Of a DNA stretch of 48,206 nucleotides, positions 1 through 6,138 are shown piece after piece. The DNA is from an uncultured Clostridia bacterium (GTDB lineage: Bacteria > Bacillota > Clostridia > Christensenellales > UBA1242): assembly GCA_944359935.1 (NCBI GenBank), contig CALVTD010000003.1, positions 1 to 48,206 on the forward strand, in the 5' to 3' direction. Under the pieces are notes generated by a model, which was not told the origin of the DNA, ran no database searches, and saw only the letters and a list, made by a program, of their open reading frames with translations. The position numbers and the translations under genes are program-made. Each line of letters starts with the position of its first letter. Position 1 is the stretch's first letter.

Positions 1-181
1 GTAGCGATGTATGGAAGGGATAAATGCTGAAAGCATCTAAGCGTGAAGCCCACCTCAAGATGAGATATCCCATAACACAAGTTAGTAAGACCCGTTGTAG
101 ACTACAACGTTGATAGGTCGGAGGTGTAAGCACAGTAATGTGTTCAGCTGACCGATACTAATAGGTCGAGGGCTTGATCAC
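1..181 (+). rRNA. rrl: 23S rRNA, 3' end (partial)
   Basis: Conserved 23S 3' motifs GCTGAAAGCATCTAAG, GTTGATAGG, TACTAATAGGTCGAGGGCTTGA; followed by 5S. End approximate. Confidence 0.97.
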
Positions 182-276
182 GGATTTGGCATTAAGTTCT
201 GTTATGTAGTTGTCAGAGTTCTATCCAAGGCTCTGTTAGAGAGATAATTTCAGGCAAAACCTGTGATTATACCATA

Positions 277-392
277 TCTGGTGGCGATAGAGAGAAGGTT
301 CCACCTGTTCTCATTCCGAACACAGAAGTTAAGCTTCTCATCGTCGAAAATACTTGGCTGGTAACGGCCCGGGAAGATAGAACACTGCCAGA
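277..392 (+). rRNA. rrf: 5S rRNA
   Basis: TCTGGTGG...CTGCCAGA terminal helix, CATTCCGAACACAGAAGTTAAGC motif, 116 nt. Confidence 0.97.
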
Positions 393-402
393 TAACAACA
401 TT

Positions 403-429
403 AAAGCAACCTTAAAAGGTTGCTTTTTT
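403..429 (+). terminator. Intrinsic terminator after 5S
   Basis: AAAGCAACC-ttaaaa-GGTTGCTTT followed by T run. Confidence 0.8.
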
Positions 430-442
430 GATTTTAATTTTT

Positions 443-720
443 GCAGTGTTCTCTCTTCCCGGAAGGGAAGATATCGCCAAGTCAAAGAAGTATGCGTGGC
501 GATGCGGGCAAGCCCTAATGAACACTGCCAGATAACAAAAAAACGCACCCGCAAGGGTGTGTTTTTTTTCTGGCAGTGTTGTGCGTCTTTGACGCACTGC
601 ACAATTTAAATTGTGCCTATCTTCCCGCACGGAAAGATATCTTCGATGCGAAAAACTGCGTTTTTCTAATGAACACTGCCATATAATTTCATTAAAGCGA
701 CCTCGTAAGGTCGCTTTTTA
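443..720. repeat. Inverted and direct copies of the 5S 3' end interleaved with hairpins and extra terminators
   Basis: Antisense copies 443-462 and 569-627, sense copies 465-536 and 630-686, terminator-like hairpins 537-569 and 693-719. Confidence 0.9.
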
Positions 721-729
721 TTTTTTTTC

Positions 730-785
730 TATCGGCAAAAAAATTATTACTTGTGTTTGACTTTTTGCCGATAAATGCGTATAAT
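730..785 (+). promoter_or_regulatory. sigma-A promoter of the Fic gene overlapped by a 12-bp inverted repeat (putative operator)
   Basis: TTGACT(757-762)-17 nt-TATAAT(780-785); TATCGGCAAAAA (730-741) / TTTTTGCCGATA (762-773). Confidence 0.75.
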
Positions 786-801
786 AATGTTGAGGTAAAA
801 T

Positions 802-1668
802 ATGGAGTTTGTAGGTGTAAGTGAAATCGCCAAGAAATGGGGCGTTAGTGAACGGACAGTGCGAAATGATTGCGCCACTGGCAAAGTGCCGGGTGCATTT
901 TTGCAGGGGAAAACTTGGAAAATTCCTGTTGATGCAGTTAGGCCTGTTCACAAAAAAAATAAATTGCTTGAAATTTTAAAGCAGCAAAAAGAAAGCCATT
1001 TAAAGGGCGGAATTTATCATAAAATTCAAGTGGCATTTGCATATAACTCAAATCATATTGAAGGAAGCACTTTGACGGAAGAGCAAACTCGATTTATTTA
1101 TGAAACCAAAACTATCGGTGTGCAAAAACATTCAGTGAATGTGGATGACATTATTGAAACAATCAACCATTTTAAATGCGTTGATTATGTTATTGATAAC
1201 GCATTAAAGCCATTAACTCAAAAGTTTATAAAAAAACTGCATTATATTTTGAAATCTTCAACAACAGATTCTCAAAAAGCTTGGTTTAATGTGGGAGTGT
1301 ATAAAAAATTGCCAAATGAAATAGGTGGAGAGCAAACTTGCTTGCCTGAAAATGTTGAACAAGAAATGGAAAATTTATTGCGTAAATATTCATCAATCAA
1401 AAATAAAAAACTTGAAGATATAGTTGAATTTCATCAAAAATTTGAAAAAATTCACCCATTTCAAGATGGCAATGGCAGAGTTGGGCGATTAATAATGTTT
1501 AAGGAATGTTTGGCAAACAATATTGTGCCGTTTATTATTGATGACAAATATAAAACATATTATTATCGCGGGCTTAAAGAATGGGGTAGTGAACGCGGCT
1601 TTTTGCTTGAAACATGCTTGTTTATGCAAGATAATTTTAAGAAATGGTTGGAATATTTTAGAATTTAA
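802..1668 (+). CDS. Fic family protein with N-terminal helix-turn-helix domain
   Basis: Fic motif HPFQDGNGRVGR, YNSNHIEG motif, N-terminal HTH-like VSEIAKKWGVSERTVR; RBS GAGGT. Confidence 0.92.
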   Translation: MEFVGVSEIAKKWGVSERTVRNDCATGKVPGAFLQGKTWKIPVDAVRPVHKKNKLLEILKQQKESHLKGGIYHKIQVAFAYNSNHIEGSTLTEEQTRFIYETKTIGVQKHSVNVDDIIETINHFKCVDYVIDNALKPLTQKFIKKLHYILKSSTTDSQKAWFNVGVYKKLPNEIGGEQTCLPENVEQEMENLLRKYSSIKNKKLEDIVEFHQKFEKIHPFQDGNGRVGRLIMFKECLANNIVPFIIDDKYKTYYYRGLKEWGSERGFLLETCLFMQDNFKKWLEYFRI

Positions 1669-1763
1669 AAACTCTTTCGTAACTGAATTTGTTTTAAATT
1701 GTTGTAATCTTGCAACTTTGAGGTGTTTGCATCATATTTTCCTCTAAAAATTTAAAAAAGGTA

Positions 1764-1792
1764 TTGAAATTATTTTAATTTCGTGGTATACT
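1764..1792 (+). promoter_or_regulatory. sigma-A promoter (extended -10)
   Basis: TTGAAA-17 nt-TATACT with upstream TG. Confidence 0.6.
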
Positions 1793-1844
1793 AAGGCATA
1801 AGAAAATGATTTCAAGCATTTAATCATTATTTTAGGAGGGACAC

Positions 1845-3572
1845 ATGTCTAATAAACTTACTAAAATTTTAACTTATTGCAGTTTGGTTTTGGTTATTTT
1901 GGCCGTTGTGATTACAACCGCTATTTGTTTGACAACCGCGCTTTCTTATAAAGTTACAGTTGACGTTGTTATTCAAAACATTGTGCCAGAAGAAGCAACC
2001 GATGCCAATGTTACTGTAAATATCAACGGAACAGAAGTTTCAACTCAAAGAGAGAACACCACTCTTACAGTTAACGCTCAAAAAGATAGGGAAGTTACAA
2101 TTACTTTTAACATGACCGACTATAACTATGTTGGCTTGTATAATGGAACAAAAGACACATATCAAGGCACCGACAGCATTTTGGCTGAGCCAACCGAATA
2201 TGTTTACAAGTTCACCGTTACACAAGACACCAACTACACTCTTGTTGTGGATGCTGCATCCTTCTATCAGGTGAGTGTTGGATACAATGCTGACAAACCT
2301 GTTGACGAAGTTGAGGGTGGGGCAATCGCAGTCACTGCATCAGGCGCCGGCGTTTATGCAGATGGTGACACAGCCAACTCTTATATTGTAAGAGAGGGCG
2401 CAGAGGTTAGCGTTTCATATGAGGCAAGTGAATATACTTTCACAGGCTGGACAAATGGCGATGCAACTTCAACTGACAGCGTTTACACATTCGTTGCAAA
2501 CGGCAACACAACAGTTACTGGAAATTTTGAAGCATATGTTTATTATGATGTTAGAGTAAATTACGCTTTTGACGAGCAAGCAATTGGCGGAAACATTGCG
2601 GTTACTGCAAATGGCCAAGAGGTTACACAAGAAGGCATTACACTTAAAATTCGTGATGGCGCAAATGTTACTCTCAGCGTAGTGAGCGGAACAGGTTATG
2701 ATTTCACAGGCTGGACAAATGTCACAGACAATGCCACATCTGCAACTGTTAATATTGCTGTTTCAGCAAACGCAGAATACACTGCAAACTTTAATGTAAT
2801 TAAATATGATATTGAATATGTTGATGGTGAGGAGTCGACAACTGTGCAAGATGTGGTTTATGGCTCAACACTTCAAGCGGGTCCAGAAGACATCTACGCA
2901 AACGGCTGGAATAAATTCCTTGGCTGGACGCTTAATGGAAGAACATATACGCAAGCAATTTTTGACGGGAATAACAGGGAAATCACTTTAACAGCATCAT
3001 ATAGAAACCAAAGTGAAATCAACTACACTTTTGATGCGGCAGCAACCGATTTTAGCACTGCTGGAACAATTTCTTACAACACAGCAAATGGCCTTGACCT
3101 TGCAAATGCCCCAACAAGAGATTACTACAACCTTATTGGAATAAGCATCAACGGCACACAATATCTTTTCAATGAAGAAAAAACTGGTTTCGCTGACGCG
3201 CAAAACACAATCGACCAATATTTGGTTAATCAAAGTGCCTCAACACTTACAGTTACTCCAATTTGGGAACTTGATGGTGCACCTATAACAGTAAACTTAC
3301 CAAGCGACTCTGATTTCAGCGGAAACATGGATAATGAAGACCAAATTACAGCAGATGCGAACATCGAAACATTGATGGTTACAGAATTCTTTGGAATTGA
3401 CGCTTCGCAAATTGCAAGTTTCAAGATTCAATATAACAGCAGAACTTACACAGTTTCTAGAACAACCGCCGATGCTTATGCAACAATCTCATTTGCAGAT
3501 GTGTTTGACACAATCGGGTTTGATGCAAGTGCATCAACAGAATTGACATTCATCTTTACAAGCAATGTTTAA
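1845..3572 (+). CDS. Membrane-anchored surface protein with InlB B-repeat-like domains
   Basis: N-terminal hydrophobic helix; repeated YTFTGWT / GYDFTGWT / KFLGWT motifs ending in T(A/G)NF; acidic Thr/Asn-rich; RBS AGGAGG. Confidence 0.75.
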   Translation: MSNKLTKILTYCSLVLVILAVVITTAICLTTALSYKVTVDVVIQNIVPEEATDANVTVNINGTEVSTQRENTTLTVNAQKDREVTITFNMTDYNYVGLYNGTKDTYQGTDSILAEPTEYVYKFTVTQDTNYTLVVDAASFYQVSVGYNADKPVDEVEGGAIAVTASGAGVYADGDTANSYIVREGAEVSVSYEASEYTFTGWTNGDATSTDSVYTFVANGNTTVTGNFEAYVYYDVRVNYAFDEQAIGGNIAVTANGQEVTQEGITLKIRDGANVTLSVVSGTGYDFTGWTNVTDNATSATVNIAVSANAEYTANFNVIKYDIEYVDGEESTTVQDVVYGSTLQAGPEDIYANGWNKFLGWTLNGRTYTQAIFDGNNREITLTASYRNQSEINYTFDAAATDFSTAGTISYNTANGLDLANAPTRDYYNLIGISINGTQYLFNEEKTGFADAQNTIDQYLVNQSASTLTVTPIWELDGAPITVNLPSDSDFSGNMDNEDQITADANIETLMVTEFFGIDASQIASFKIQYNSRTYTVSRTTADAYATISFADVFDTIGFDASASTELTFIFTSNV

Positions 3573-3578
3573 TAACAA

Positions 3579-3610
3579 CAAAAAGCCTTGAAAAAATTCA
3601 AGGCTTTTTT
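3579..3610 (+). terminator. Intrinsic terminator
   Basis: AAAAGCCTTGAA-loop-TTCAAGGCTTTT followed by Ts. Confidence 0.8.
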
Positions 3611-3630
3611 AATTTTTTTATTAAAATTTG

Positions 3631-3659
3631 TTGACAAAGTTATTTTACTTTGGTATATT
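3631..3659 (+). promoter_or_regulatory. sigma-A promoter of tRNA-Val
   Basis: TTGACA-17 nt-TATATT with extended -10 TG. Confidence 0.7.
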
Positions 3660-3678
3660 TATCTTGCATCCTTTATTT

Positions 3679-3754
3679 GGGAGTTTAGCTCAGCTGGGAG
3701 AGCATCTGCCTTACAAGCAGAGGGTCATAGGTTCGAGCCCTATAACTCCCACCA
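3679..3754 (+). tRNA. tRNA-Val(TAC)
   Basis: Cloverleaf, anticodon loop CTTACAA, GTTCGAG T-loop, encoded CCA. Confidence 0.97.
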
Positions 3755-3756
3755 GC

Positions 3757-4013
3757 AAAAAAGCACACGCATGTGTGCTTTTTTATTTTGCCTTTGGCAA
3801 AATTGCATGGCTTTGCCATGCGCTGGTGGGAGATATATCTGCGCTTGGCTCACTCTTGCAAGCAAGTTCGCCTGCGCTTGATATAACTCCATTAGTTGCG
3901 TTTGCATGGTGGGAGATATATCAGCGCGTGGCTCACCATTGCAAGCAAGTTCGCTTATGCCTTGATATAACTCCCACCAAAAAAAACGGTCATCGCAAGA
4001 TGGCTGTTTTTTT
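3757..4013. repeat. Terminator, hairpins and two tandem cassettes bounded by inverted/direct copies of the tRNA-Val 3' end
   Basis: TGGTGGGAGATATA at 3824 and 3907; TATAACTCC(CACCA) at 3882 and 3966; shared core GGCTCAC..TTGCAAGCAAGTTCGC; terminators 3757-3784 and 3980-4013. Confidence 0.9.
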
Positions 4014-4061
4014 CACACTTTTTTGCCAAAAAGAATATGTAAAGCAAGGAGGTTTTTTAAA

Positions 4062-4571
4062 ATGCCTATTATTTGTAATGATAACACAAATGGATGCTTT
4101 ACTGGGCCTTACTATCCGCGCCCGATTTTTCAATGCTGCTCGGGTGGTTCGTGTGGTGGCCCGAACACGATTGTAAATCCTACGCGTTCGGAAGAGTGGG
4201 GCTTTTTTGTGGGGGCGAGCGCAACGGTTGCTCAAAATCAGGCCTTGCCACTTACGCTGAATGCCAGTGCGGGTACTGCCGTTACGCAAAGTGATGCCAC
4301 AACCGTGGGACTGACGGCGGGTTCTTACCAAGTTTCGTTTAATGTAACCGCATCTTCTGCCGCCAACCCAATGGAGTTTGCCCTTGAACTTAACGGCACG
4401 GTGCTGCCTTATTCTATCGTTACTGCCACTGGTGACAGCACCAACAAAACCCTTTCAAATTCGGTGATTATTTCAGTGCCAACAAATGCCACGCTGAGGA
4501 TAGTTAACCTAACGGCAGGAAATGCCACGGCCACGCGCAGCAATTTGGCGGCGACAAAACTTTTGACATGA
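4062..4571 (+). CDS. BclA C-terminal-domain-like (spore surface) protein with Cys-rich N-terminus
   Basis: RBS AGGAGG then ATG 4062; beta-rich pattern LTAGSYQVSFNV...ALELNG...ATLRIVN resembles BclA/C1q-type domains; family call from recall. Confidence 0.55.
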   Translation: MPIICNDNTNGCFTGPYYPRPIFQCCSGGSCGGPNTIVNPTRSEEWGFFVGASATVAQNQALPLTLNASAGTAVTQSDATTVGLTAGSYQVSFNVTASSAANPMEFALELNGTVLPYSIVTATGDSTNKTLSNSVIISVPTNATLRIVNLTAGNATATRSNLAATKLLT

Positions 4572-4655
4572 TGCTAAAATTCCCTTTCATTTTTATTTCG
4601 AATGGCGTATAATAATTATAGGGATGGCGCAGGCTAAAAAAAGGAGGGGGAAAGC

Positions 4656-4811
4656 ATGAAAAAAGATTTTGTAAATGACGAGCAACGGCTTTACTGGGAG
4701 CTTTTTAGCAAAGGTCCAAAGGGGCTGAAAGGCAACCCTCTGCTTATTACCGAGTTTATGGAAATGGAAAAAGAGCGCACAAAAATTAAAACTGAGGAGA
4801 TGTCAAGATAA
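4656..4811 (+). CDS. Small YqzL-like protein (51 aa)
   Basis: Strong RBS AAGGAGG; MKKDFVNDEQRLYWELFSKG...; position immediately upstream of recO as for yqzL; not in the ORF track. Confidence 0.6.
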   Translation: MKKDFVNDEQRLYWELFSKGPKGLKGNPLLITEFMEMEKERTKIKTEEMSR

Positions 4812-4814
4812 CAA

Positions 4815-5525
4815 ATGTCTACAAAAGTTAAGGCTTTCGTGCTGGAAGCAAAAGATAGCAAAGAAAAAGATAAACTTGCCACCCTTTACACGCTTGAAAA
4901 TGGCAAGTTTTTTGTTAATTTTAGGGGAGTGAGGGGCGCAAAAGCAAAACTGAAAGCGGCAAAAGAAGTTTTTACTTTTGGCGAGTATGTTATTGAGCAA
5001 ACCAAGGCTGGCAACATTGTAACCGAAGCCAACATTATTGATAATTTCATGCCGCTTAGAAATGATTTGGACAAGTTCTATGAGGCATGTTCGATTTTTG
5101 ACATAGTTAAAAAACTTGGTGCGCAAACGCCAGACCCGGCACTCTTTATTGAAATTTTAAAGGCGATGAAAGCCATATGTTATGACGGGGCGCCAAAATA
5201 TTATGTTGTGATTAAGTTTTTGCTTAACATATTTGAAAACATGGGCTACAAACTTAACTTTGATAAATGTGCAAGTTGCGGCGCAGTGCTCACAGGAAAG
5301 AAATACTTGAATCTCGATTACGGCGAAATTGTCTGTGCAAATTGCAGGCAGATGACCTCAATCGAGGTTGCGCCTGCCACAATTGGCGCGCTTAAAATAA
5401 TCAAACAAACGCCTTATGAAAAACTTAAAACCGTCAAACTTGGCGGCGGAGGTGAGATTAAAGCGCTAAATCTTTTGTGTGAAAACTTTGAGTGGCGCTT
5501 TGGTAGTAAGTTTTTTATTGATTAA
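4815..5525 (+). CDS. recO: DNA repair protein RecO
   Basis: N-terminal OB-type start (EKDKLATLYTLENGK), C-terminal Zn finger CASCG...VCANC. Confidence 0.9.
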   Translation: MSTKVKAFVLEAKDSKEKDKLATLYTLENGKFFVNFRGVRGAKAKLKAAKEVFTFGEYVIEQTKAGNIVTEANIIDNFMPLRNDLDKFYEACSIFDIVKKLGAQTPDPALFIEILKAMKAICYDGAPKYYVVIKFLLNIFENMGYKLNFDKCASCGAVLTGKKYLNLDYGEIVCANCRQMTSIEVAPATIGALKIIKQTPYEKLKTVKLGGGGEIKALNLLCENFEWRFGSKFFID

Positions 5526-5549
5526 AAGGTTGCGTGGCAGCCTTTTTTT
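5525..5549 (+). terminator. Intrinsic terminator after recO
   Basis: AAAAGGTTGC-gtg-GCAGCCTTTT followed by Ts. Confidence 0.7.
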
Positions 5550-5584
5550 ATTTGAAAAAATTTTAATTTTCTTTTGAAAAATGC

Positions 5585-5613
5585 TTGACTTAAAAGGCGT
5601 TATTGTTTATAAT
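5585..5613 (+). promoter_or_regulatory. sigma-A promoter of the S10 operon
   Basis: TTGACT-17 nt-TATAAT. Confidence 0.85.
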
Positions 5614-5619
5614 TACTAT

Positions 5620-5829
5620 GCTGTGAAATATGGGTTGATGCCTAAGGTTACTTTGGTTACCGGCAATCAAAGAGAACTTGGGCGGACAAGTTCGTGGCAA
5701 GACCGCGAGCGGCTGACCTTAATCCACATTTTTTATTGCTCAGCAGCATGAAACACACGGATGCGTGTTCGAGGGTTTCAAAAAGCAAGTGGGGCAAGGC
5801 AGTTTAGCCAAAACTAGGAGGAAAATTAA
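5620..5829 (+). promoter_or_regulatory. Long structured 5' leader of rpsJ (candidate ribosomal-protein leader RNA)
   Basis: About 210 nt, GC-richer than flanks, between promoter and rpsJ RBS, with local stems. Confidence 0.5.
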
Positions 5830-6138
5830 ATGGCAACAAAGAAAATCAGGATTAAACTTAAAGCGTTTGAGCACTCACTCATCGATGAGGCTTGCAAAAG
5901 AATCATCCTTGCTGCTGAGAAAAACGGCGCCAAAGTTGCTGGTCCAATTCCACTTCCAACTGACAGGGAAGTAGTTACGGTTATCCGTTCACCACATATG
6001 CACAAAGATAGCCGTGAACAATTTGAGTCTAAGACTCACAAAAGACTTATCGATATTATTAGTCCATCCACTAAGGTTGTAGACGCTATGATGAAACTCG
6101 ACCTTCCAGCAGGCGTGGACATCCAAATCAAACTGTAA
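5830..6138 (+). CDS. rpsJ: 30S ribosomal protein S10
   Basis: [30 protein letters not shown]. Confidence 0.99.

Follow-up and report, generated by a model that had tools for sequence, protein, structure and literature searches.

Immediately behind the 5S rRNA gene of an uncultured Clostridia bacterium, near the start of the 48,206-nucleotide stretch of contig CALVTD010000003.1 analyzed here (the window, in which positions are counted from its first letter), the last nucleotides of the 5S gene recur several times on alternating strands. We find that this region consists of two tandem units (441-536 and 567-686) of a genus-wide structured element, and not of hairpins that were inserted into copies of the 5S end. 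The evidence lies in the anatomy of the units, in their conservation and covariation across the genus, in their restriction to the 5S flank, in the way they follow the 5S gene of each genome, and in recombinant forms present in metagenomes. That they belong to a conserved structured element resembling the tRNA-linked repeats (TLRs) of Escherichia coli is, in our judgment, highly probable. The fuller account, in which the two tandem units are a genus-specific element that is built like the TLRs and works by the mechanism proposed below, is the one that we modestly favor, and a functional pairing of the units with 5S rRNA is offered tentatively.

The segment that is echoed (369-392, plus strand) comprises the 3' strand of 5S helix IV/V (369-380, here termed V) and the 3' strand of helix I (381-392, here termed I). 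The echoes listed in the original prediction are all present, antisense at 443-462 and 569-627 and sense at 465-536 and 630-686. A repeat search returned the sense copies 375-395, 515-535, and 666-686, an antisense echo at 443-462 that is complementary to 369-388 at 19 of 20 positions (95%), a further antisense stretch at 617-627 that is complementary to 370-380 at 11 of 11, and a pair of arms, 521-544 and 557-580, with 83% complementarity over 24 nt. On a larger scale, the 56 nt from 380 to 435, which take in the 5S end, its trailer, and the first terminator (T1), are repeated at 671-726 with 79% identity, and long palindromes are centered on T1 (369-462) and on the second terminator, T2 (521-580). 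When up to 3 mismatches are allowed, the 17-mer GAACACTGCCAGATAAC from the 5S tail has four matches in the 48,206 bases, every one of them within 369-687: two are exact (380-396 and 520-536), one has 2 mismatches (671-687), and one lies on the minus strand with 3 mismatches (565-581). This is far beyond chance, as 0.06 matches are expected and none of 100 shuffles gets to four. The 12-mer CCGGGAAGATAG from the other half was not significant when taken alone, with 5 matches compared to 1.27 expected and 2 of 100 shuffles reaching 5.

Each unit carries antisense halves (I- and V-) in its 5' part and sense halves (V+ and I+) in its 3' part, with I- and I+ forming a closing stem, P1, and V- and V+ forming a hairpin, P2. 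Two additional hairpins, Pa and Pb, sit between I- and V-, and two others, P3 and P4, between V+ and I+, making the unit a junction of up to six helices with a conserved unpaired G-C and U-A-A at its center, and the unit ends by repeating the 5S 3' end together with its trailer and terminator. Units begin about 60 nt past the 5S end, behind T1. Unit A (443-536, with the fold spanning 441-536, plus strand; -39.7 kcal/mol, z -5.3) scores 57.4 bits (E 2e-13) with R1, a covariance model of 145 positions and 43 pairs that was made from seven full units. Its 5' part is composed of antisense I (443-451, the 5' strand of P1) and antisense V (452-462), with P2 at 454-460/465-471; these are followed by P3 (472-479/497-504), the junction bases G-C (504-505), P4 (506-508/513-515), and TAAT (516-519), and the unit ends with sense I (520-528, the 3' strand of P1) within a stretch (520-536) that repeats the 5S end and trailer and is identical to 380-396. 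Unit B (570-686, with the fold spanning 567-686, plus strand; -44.6 kcal/mol, z -7.3; R1 60.7 bits, E 2.6e-14) opens with antisense I (570-580; P1 571-580/672-681), Pa (581-587/591-597), and Pb (599-605/610-616), continues with antisense V (617-627), P2 (618-626/631-639), and CGATGCG (644-650), and closes with P4 (650-656/660-666), TAATG (667-671), and sense I (672-681). Unit A therefore has P3 and P4 and lacks Pa and Pb, while unit B has Pa, Pb, and P4 and lacks P3.

The original prediction had described the same material as copies of the 5S end split by inserts at 474-519, 581-616, and 640-670, and as a description this is accurate: the hairpins 581-597 and 599-616 are perfectly paired, and the two sense inserts each close with CGATGCG, a hairpin, and CTAATG. 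Its explanation, an iterative and site-specific insertion of hairpins, is not supported, as the usual form of the element across the genus already has hairpins at both junctions. Because most units of more distant species have all six helices, units A and B are more simply read as reduced forms, which are seen mainly in the near relatives of the window. The point that the insertions seemed to share corresponds to the place in 5S where the 3' strand of helix V meets that of helix I; in the units, this place becomes the center of a multihelix junction.

The genus was represented by 154 species genomes, of which 112 have a 5S match, exactly one each, and the 5S gene with about 1 kb downstream was taken from all 112. 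At least one echo of the genome's own 5S tail (with no more than 2 mismatches) occurs within 800 nt downstream in 87 of these loci and none in the other 25; an antisense echo is present in 81, and an antisense echo together with a sense helix I copy is present in 54. Altogether the 112 loci gave 326 echo matches, compared to 22 for reversed control patterns. With R1, 74 of 100 loci yielded a total of 107 same-strand units and the other 12 a single weak match (E 0.0015), which brings the genus genomes that have units to 75 of the 112 with a 5S flank; the units invariably lie close behind the 5S gene and on its strand. The first unit starts at a median of 61 nt from the 5S end, and loci carry one unit (45 loci), two (26), three (2), or four (1). 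Another 38 matches on the opposite strand all overlap a same-strand match and have far lower scores. In a whole-genome search of 151 genomes of the order, the genome of the window and all 4 sampled genomes of the genus matched, in the 5S flank only, and 0 of 146 genomes from 94 other genera did so under the search tool's stricter filters. The comparison with related genomes that had been recommended also found a species (L036) with the same order of unit A followed by unit B. In one locus (L005, genome G010), at about 186-329 nt past the 5S end, the P3-P4 block of one unit is duplicated in tandem, and therefore submodules of the unit can be duplicated as well.

Selection on structure, which the original prediction had proposed, is borne out across these loci. 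An alignment of 20 full units with MAFFT, folded with RNAalifold, was poor and recovered just P1 and parts of Pa and P3, and the covariance model was used instead. The 62 best R1 matches (E <1e-12) represent 60 distinct rows from 50 loci; standard pairs fill 90.7% of their cells compared to 72.5% in shuffles, double changes are found in 419 cells compared to 120, and 34 of the 43 pairs change on both sides, with every pair of Pa, Pb, P3, and P4 covarying. The covariation score was 0.399, as opposed to 0.121 in shuffles (0 of 500 as high) and 0.044-0.075 with slid partners, a difference whose weight is reduced, to the disadvantage of our interpretation, by the fact that the alignment was fitted to R1 and that the species are related and not independent. 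The unpaired bases of the junction are conserved, both between P3 and P4 (G in 100% and C in 90%) and after P4 (U in 95%, A in 95%, and A in 100%); the loop of P2 is not conserved across units. Fold z-scores of eight units ranged from -3.4 to -8.2, and the helix order and junction bases are kept across species whose 5S genes are 88-98% identical and whose flanking genes differ.

The units also follow the 5S gene of their own genome. When the variable 5S sites were replaced by N in the search pattern, the sense helix I copy agreed with the genome's own 5S in 70 and 71 of 75 cases, where 42.6 and 50.4 were expected, the antisense helix V copy in 72 of 94 (38.1 expected), and the sense helix V copy in 53 of 80 (33.1 expected). 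V- is complementary to the 5S gene to a greater degree than to its own partner strand: of 60 units, 50 show better pairing of V- with the 5S of their genome than with V+, 8 show no difference, and 2 show the reverse, which amounts to 493 Watson-Crick pairs and 21 mismatches for V- with 5S and to 419 and 91 for V- with V+. The same preference is seen in 14 of 15 units that lie at least 150 nt from the 5S gene, and pairing is perfect between V- and 5S in 42 of 60 units and between V- and V+ in 5 of 60. Complementarity to 5S is thus preserved in the face of a persisting defect in P2.

Among the loci examined (L004-L126), the outer pairs of 5S helix I (277-286 and 383-393 in the window) flip on both strands between species: most species have TCCAG...CTGGA, 8 loci of the clade of the window have TCTGG...CCAGA, and others have ACCGG...CCGGT. 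One locus (L006) has a CTGGA-type 5S gene and a unit B that is of the CCAGA type on both strands, and this mixture of types suggests that the units and the 5S tail exchange sequence.

Three terminators separate and follow the units. T1 (403-432, plus strand), which stands between the 5S gene and unit A, was found by a terminator scan as a stem (403-411/418-426) followed by a T run; it also has an upstream A run, is terminator-like on the minus strand as well, and is listed by the scan on both strands. T2 (537-569, plus strand; -17.1 kcal/mol) consists of an A run, a stem (544-550/555-561) with one G-T pair in the plus-strand reading, and a T run (562-569); this hairpin appears in the scan for the minus strand alone, and its plus-strand reading was made by eye from the sequence. 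T3 (694-727, plus strand) has a stem (694-703/708-717) and a T run, was found by the scan, and is a diverged copy of T1. Between T1 (403-426) and T3 (694-717), the compensatory change of an A-T to a G-C pair that had been pointed out earlier is present. Such an accumulation of three terminator-like hairpins within 330 nt, two of them listed on the minus strand, could be taken to mean that the array is a battery for termination and insulation, in which bidirectional terminators stop rrn and convergent transcription and the units are structured spacers that extend the stems. The sense and antisense copies do extend the stems of T1 and T2 to 20-24 bp, and E. coli rrn operons with TLRs have been reported to end in dual terminators too (PMC8144298). 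This explanation leaves the conservation of P3 and P4, the junction bases, and the tracking of 5S by V- unaccounted for, and the 25 of 112 loci mentioned above do without any echo; we consider it improbable.

Contigs from independent public runs bear on the integrity of the array. The public runs that contain this stretch are labeled as chicken gut metagenomes; a contig from run X18 covers 316-542 exactly, and contigs from run X5 cover 433-649 and 658-1297. Together, contigs of independent runs bridge the joints from 5S over T1 to unit A, from unit A over T2 to unit B, and from unit B over T3 to the fic gene. An assembly artifact, in which the 3' flanks of several rrn operons were collapsed into one, might be suspected because the window begins inside the 23S gene at a contig end and because short repeats break the contigs of public runs. 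It has next to no probability in our estimate: there is one 5S match per genus genome (112 of 154 genomes with a match), another species has the same A-then-B order, and the joints are spanned, so that the collapsed mosaic of rrn flanks that the original prediction had named as its possible refutation does not apply.

The same runs contain rearranged forms of the array. In a form from DNA run X5, position 379 is joined to 520, with the result that unit A is lost and the 5S tail is supplied by the sense copy of unit A; in a form from DNA run X11, position 670 is joined to 380, which places unit B ahead of unit A, an order also found in L006. The array is thus recombining. Direct repeats of the 3' end of a stable RNA are a classic mark of integrase insertion, and the genes right past the array vary between species, which might suggest att-site scars left by integrative elements that inserted into the 5S 3' end and duplicated it. 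We regard this as very unlikely, as no integrase or recombinase is found among the neighboring open reading frames, the copies are confined to 369-687 (within 320 nt) of the 48-kb window, alternate in strand, and are half antisense, and the 100-150 nt between copies are a conserved, covarying structure.

By its architecture, the genus element has its closest known counterparts in kind in the TLRs of E. coli. According to Stenum et al. (2021, PMC8144298), TLRs are found in tRNA and rRNA operons, and their terminal 18-19 bp are identical to the 3' end of the preceding gene; there are 22 in E. coli K-12, with one to five per locus. Three of them, rrA, rrB, and rrF, are reported there to lie downstream of 5S in rrnA, rrnB, and rrnD, between T1 and T2, to give rise to products of T1 read-through, and to bind Hfq and CsrA in vitro, with conservation of RrB only in Enterobacterales. 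One proposal is that the repeat restores the site at which RNase E acts on the 5S 3' end (PMC8144298). By that account, the discovery of TLRs in E. coli dates back to 1978, and they have no established function (Egan and Landy 1978 and Rudd 1999, as cited in PMC8144298). The genus units share with them a position directly behind the last stable-RNA gene and between successive terminators, the lack of a promoter-like site of their own, a 3' end that repeats the 5S 3' end (17/17 at 520-536 and 15/17 at 671-687), and a comparable number per locus (1 to 4, vs one to five in E. coli). Both units of the window are flanked by terminators and neither is preceded by a promoter-like site. In the E. coli rrnB trailer we likewise found the 5S tail again 168 nt downstream (30 nt, 87% identity), together with a weak palindrome (arms of 35 nt, 80% complementary) that surrounds T1 and extends into the 5S tail. 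The differences are also clear: apart from this design, the rrnB trailer shows by eye no likeness to the units, and there is no Rfam likeness; the element was found in only one genus, which belongs to a different phylum (Clostridia); the unit has a built-in antisense copy of the final ~24 nt of 5S, which forms its stems together with the sense copy; and genes for Hfq, CsrA, and RNase E/G were not found in the genome of the window.

The function that we infer for the units combines read-through transcription, release of discrete RNAs, and pairing of V- with 5S. Having no promoter of its own, a unit would depend entirely for its synthesis on RNA polymerase passing the rrn terminator ahead of it, a view that is based on the lack of a promoter-like site, the location on the same strand as 5S, and the E. 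coli precedent. A contig from the RNA library X18, which runs through 316-542 without a difference (none of the contigs of this library lie on 543-1300), is a weak hint that unit A is transcribed. The re-created 5S 3' end, trailer, and terminator would offer the same signals for 3'-end formation and trimming as the 5S gene itself, from which it would follow that successive units are released as discrete RNAs, in amounts that follow rRNA transcription. In the read-through precursor the antisense half may pair with the 3' segment of 5S, or it may pair with free pre-5S, and because V- is kept complementary to its own 5S while V+ has a conserved defect, the unit would be a masked anti-5S guide with the imperfect sense half as its mask. 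The long duplexes arising from such pairing would be potential substrates for the RNase III of this genome. In addition, units would be shuffled, deleted, and multiplied by unequal recombination at their sense copies, which would also prevent their tails from diverging from the 5S tail.

Tobacco chloroplasts have been found to make AS5, a natural antisense RNA directed against 5S, whose overexpression lowered 5S stability and polysome association (Hotto et al. 2010, PMC3017836), and anti-5S pairing can therefore matter. AS5 resembles the genus unit in being complementary to 5S and encoded at the rrn 3' end and differs from it in being transcribed from the opposite strand across the whole 5S-trnR region, whereas the unit is a short downstream copy on the same strand that is masked by a sense copy.

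Predicted folds bear on the pairing of the antisense half with 5S and also allow more far-reaching rearrangements. The stretch 277-464 folds at -72.7 kcal/mol compared to -50.3 for 277-432, and by the energy model the antisense block, once made, can take the 5S tail; for 277-536, a swapped fold, in which the 5S 5' strand pairs with the sense copy of unit A, reaches -98.1 kcal/mol vs -90.0 for the modular fold, and for 277-727 the corresponding values are -189.6 and -166.4, all of them energies that ignore kinetics and proteins. One could speculate that the array is a switch, in which, within read-through transcripts, the antisense half captures the 5S 3' end and a downstream sense copy closes helix I with the 5S 5' strand, leading to alternative, extended, or two-piece 5S-like molecules or to commitment of read-through precursors to cleavage by RNase III. 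We give this model little credence; if true, it would tie terminator efficiency to 5S maturation.

Several observations weigh against our interpretation, and a number of them speak for its most serious competitor, according to which the array is a nonadaptive by-product of DNA metabolism, with fold-back or template-switch errors at terminator palindromes followed by unequal crossing-over, and any RNA made from it is functionless. The echoes alternate in strand and center on terminator hairpins (369-462 on T1 and 521-580 on T2), and template switching is known to create and repair perfect stems, with reverse-complement copies made in one step (Monttinen and Loytynoja 2022, PMC8794818), which fits both the alternating echoes and the scarcity of G-U pairs. 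G-U pairs are rare and not commoner than A-C (46 vs 45 of 2386 cells); the stems are therefore equally good on both strands, as fits DNA-level palindromes or template-switch repair. P1 and P2 differ in this regard, as G-U exceeds A-C in P1 (28 vs 7) and falls short of it in P2 (3 vs 23), where the bias favors the minus strand. Copy number and order differ between near relatives and within metagenomes, and exchanges such as those seen in the rearranged forms suffice in principle to maintain identity between the sense copies, trailers, and terminators and their 5S counterparts. R1 has no match in 37 of the 112 loci, and one species with 97% 5S identity (L037) has no match at the usual place; the element is therefore dispensable. 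Support from RNA is thin, with none for unit B, in hosts that are uncultured gut bacteria: contigs of a second RNA run, X19, contain rRNA parts only and none past 5S, and since the runs were available as contigs they show neither strand nor RNA ends, and absence of cover says nothing about absence of transcription. RNase E/G, Hfq, and CsrA, the enzyme and partners known for the E. coli TLRs, were not found in this 97%-complete genome, nor was RNase M5; the processing step is drawn by analogy from the proposal for RrB and RNase E in E. coli. Finally, an antisense half that pairs with 5S would interfere with the native fold of 5S, at a benefit that is unexplained.

What speaks against a nonadaptive by-product is that the helix order and junction bases are kept although the 5S genes are only 88-98% identical and the flanks differ, and that P2, the easiest target of repair, is perfect in so few units while the distant V-/5S match is perfect in so many, including units at least 150 nt away; neutral repair predicts the opposite. 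Template switching is moreover a mutational mechanism and not a functional class, and alone it leaves the junction bases and the defect of P2 unexplained. We judge a by-product to be unlikely, though deserving of more weight than the other alternatives.

The units also bear a resemblance to 5S rRNA itself, as they share the order of helix I 5' strand, side arm or arms, helix V hairpin, and helix I 3' strand, with the 3' strands copied from 5S; they differ in that their helices are perfect complements where those of 5S are imperfect, and in that two extra hairpins lie between the helix V and helix I 3' strands. The 5S model has no match over 441-686 at E <1. Searches with Rfam 15 over positions 1-6000 of the window (E <=1) returned only 23S, 5S, tRNA, and chance-level matches, the best match over the region being MicX, with 28.3 bits compared to a gathering score of 75, and at E <=0.1 no family was found for the units in the loci of six relatives. 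To our knowledge, Rfam includes RtT and has no rrB model. Among the titles listed by a literature search, none dealt with such modules in Clostridia.

Likenesses to SRP RNA helix 8 (CCGGAAGG...GCCAAG), to the twister ribozyme (UAACACUGCC), and to the hammerhead core (CUAAUGA vs CUGAUGA) were considered and dropped, because Rfam has a family for each and gave no match, the P2 loop is unconserved, and in 37 of 112 loci the model found no unit. A sponge for CsrA and Hfq as in E. coli was rejected, since neither gene was found in the genome, and so was maturation by RNase M5 with P1 as a mimic of helix I, since no RNase M5 gene was found.

With more than 100 units in about 75 species and with strong covariation, this family shows the TLR design in a distant phylum, and it offers a new clue in that the antisense block keeps to the host 5S more faithfully than to its own partner strand. 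Why such repeats copy the 3' end of a gene can then be asked in more specific terms, namely, whether 3'-processing signals are reused and whether antisense pairing with pre-5S takes place. Of 10 loci belonging to other families of the order, 3 have sense-only echoes behind a terminator: a 33-nt piece of a tRNA 3' end repeated 240 nt downstream at 97% identity, along with a second repeat unit of 94 nt (L024:1669-1941); 31 nt of a tRNA 3' end repeated at 199 nt at 100% (L031:1200-1429); and 50 nt of a 5S 3' end repeated at 275 nt at 98% (L032:492-816). R1 gives no match to these echoes, and they are not homologous to the genus element; given their presence in three other families, the design may be widespread and overlooked.

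The genome to which the window belongs is small (867 kb in 51 contigs) and has a single 5S locus. The contig begins within the 23S rRNA gene, whose 3' end occupies positions 1-181 on the plus strand (Rfam LSU_rRNA_bacteria, 154 bits, model positions 2745-2925), followed by the full-length 5S rRNA gene at 277-393 on the same strand (Rfam 5S_rRNA, 90.2 bits). A promoter scan of 150-900 found on the plus strand no promoter-like site other than 757-785 (TTGACT, 17 nt, TATAAT), and therefore none between 5S and 757; this near-consensus site serves the first gene past the array (802-1668), which encodes a protein with HTH_17 and Fic/DOC domains (Pfam), and it marks the end of the element. Downstream of the array follow, in addition to the HTH-Fic gene, a repeat-domain protein, a tRNA, RecO, and S10, and the genes right behind the array vary among the species of the genus. 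RNase III (C6:3720-4073), RNase Y, and RNase J were found in the genome. The RNase Y gene is split across two contig ends (G000:C9:30213-30938, model positions 273-514, and G000:C7:3-815, model positions 2-272), which is most simply an assembly break and not a split gene.

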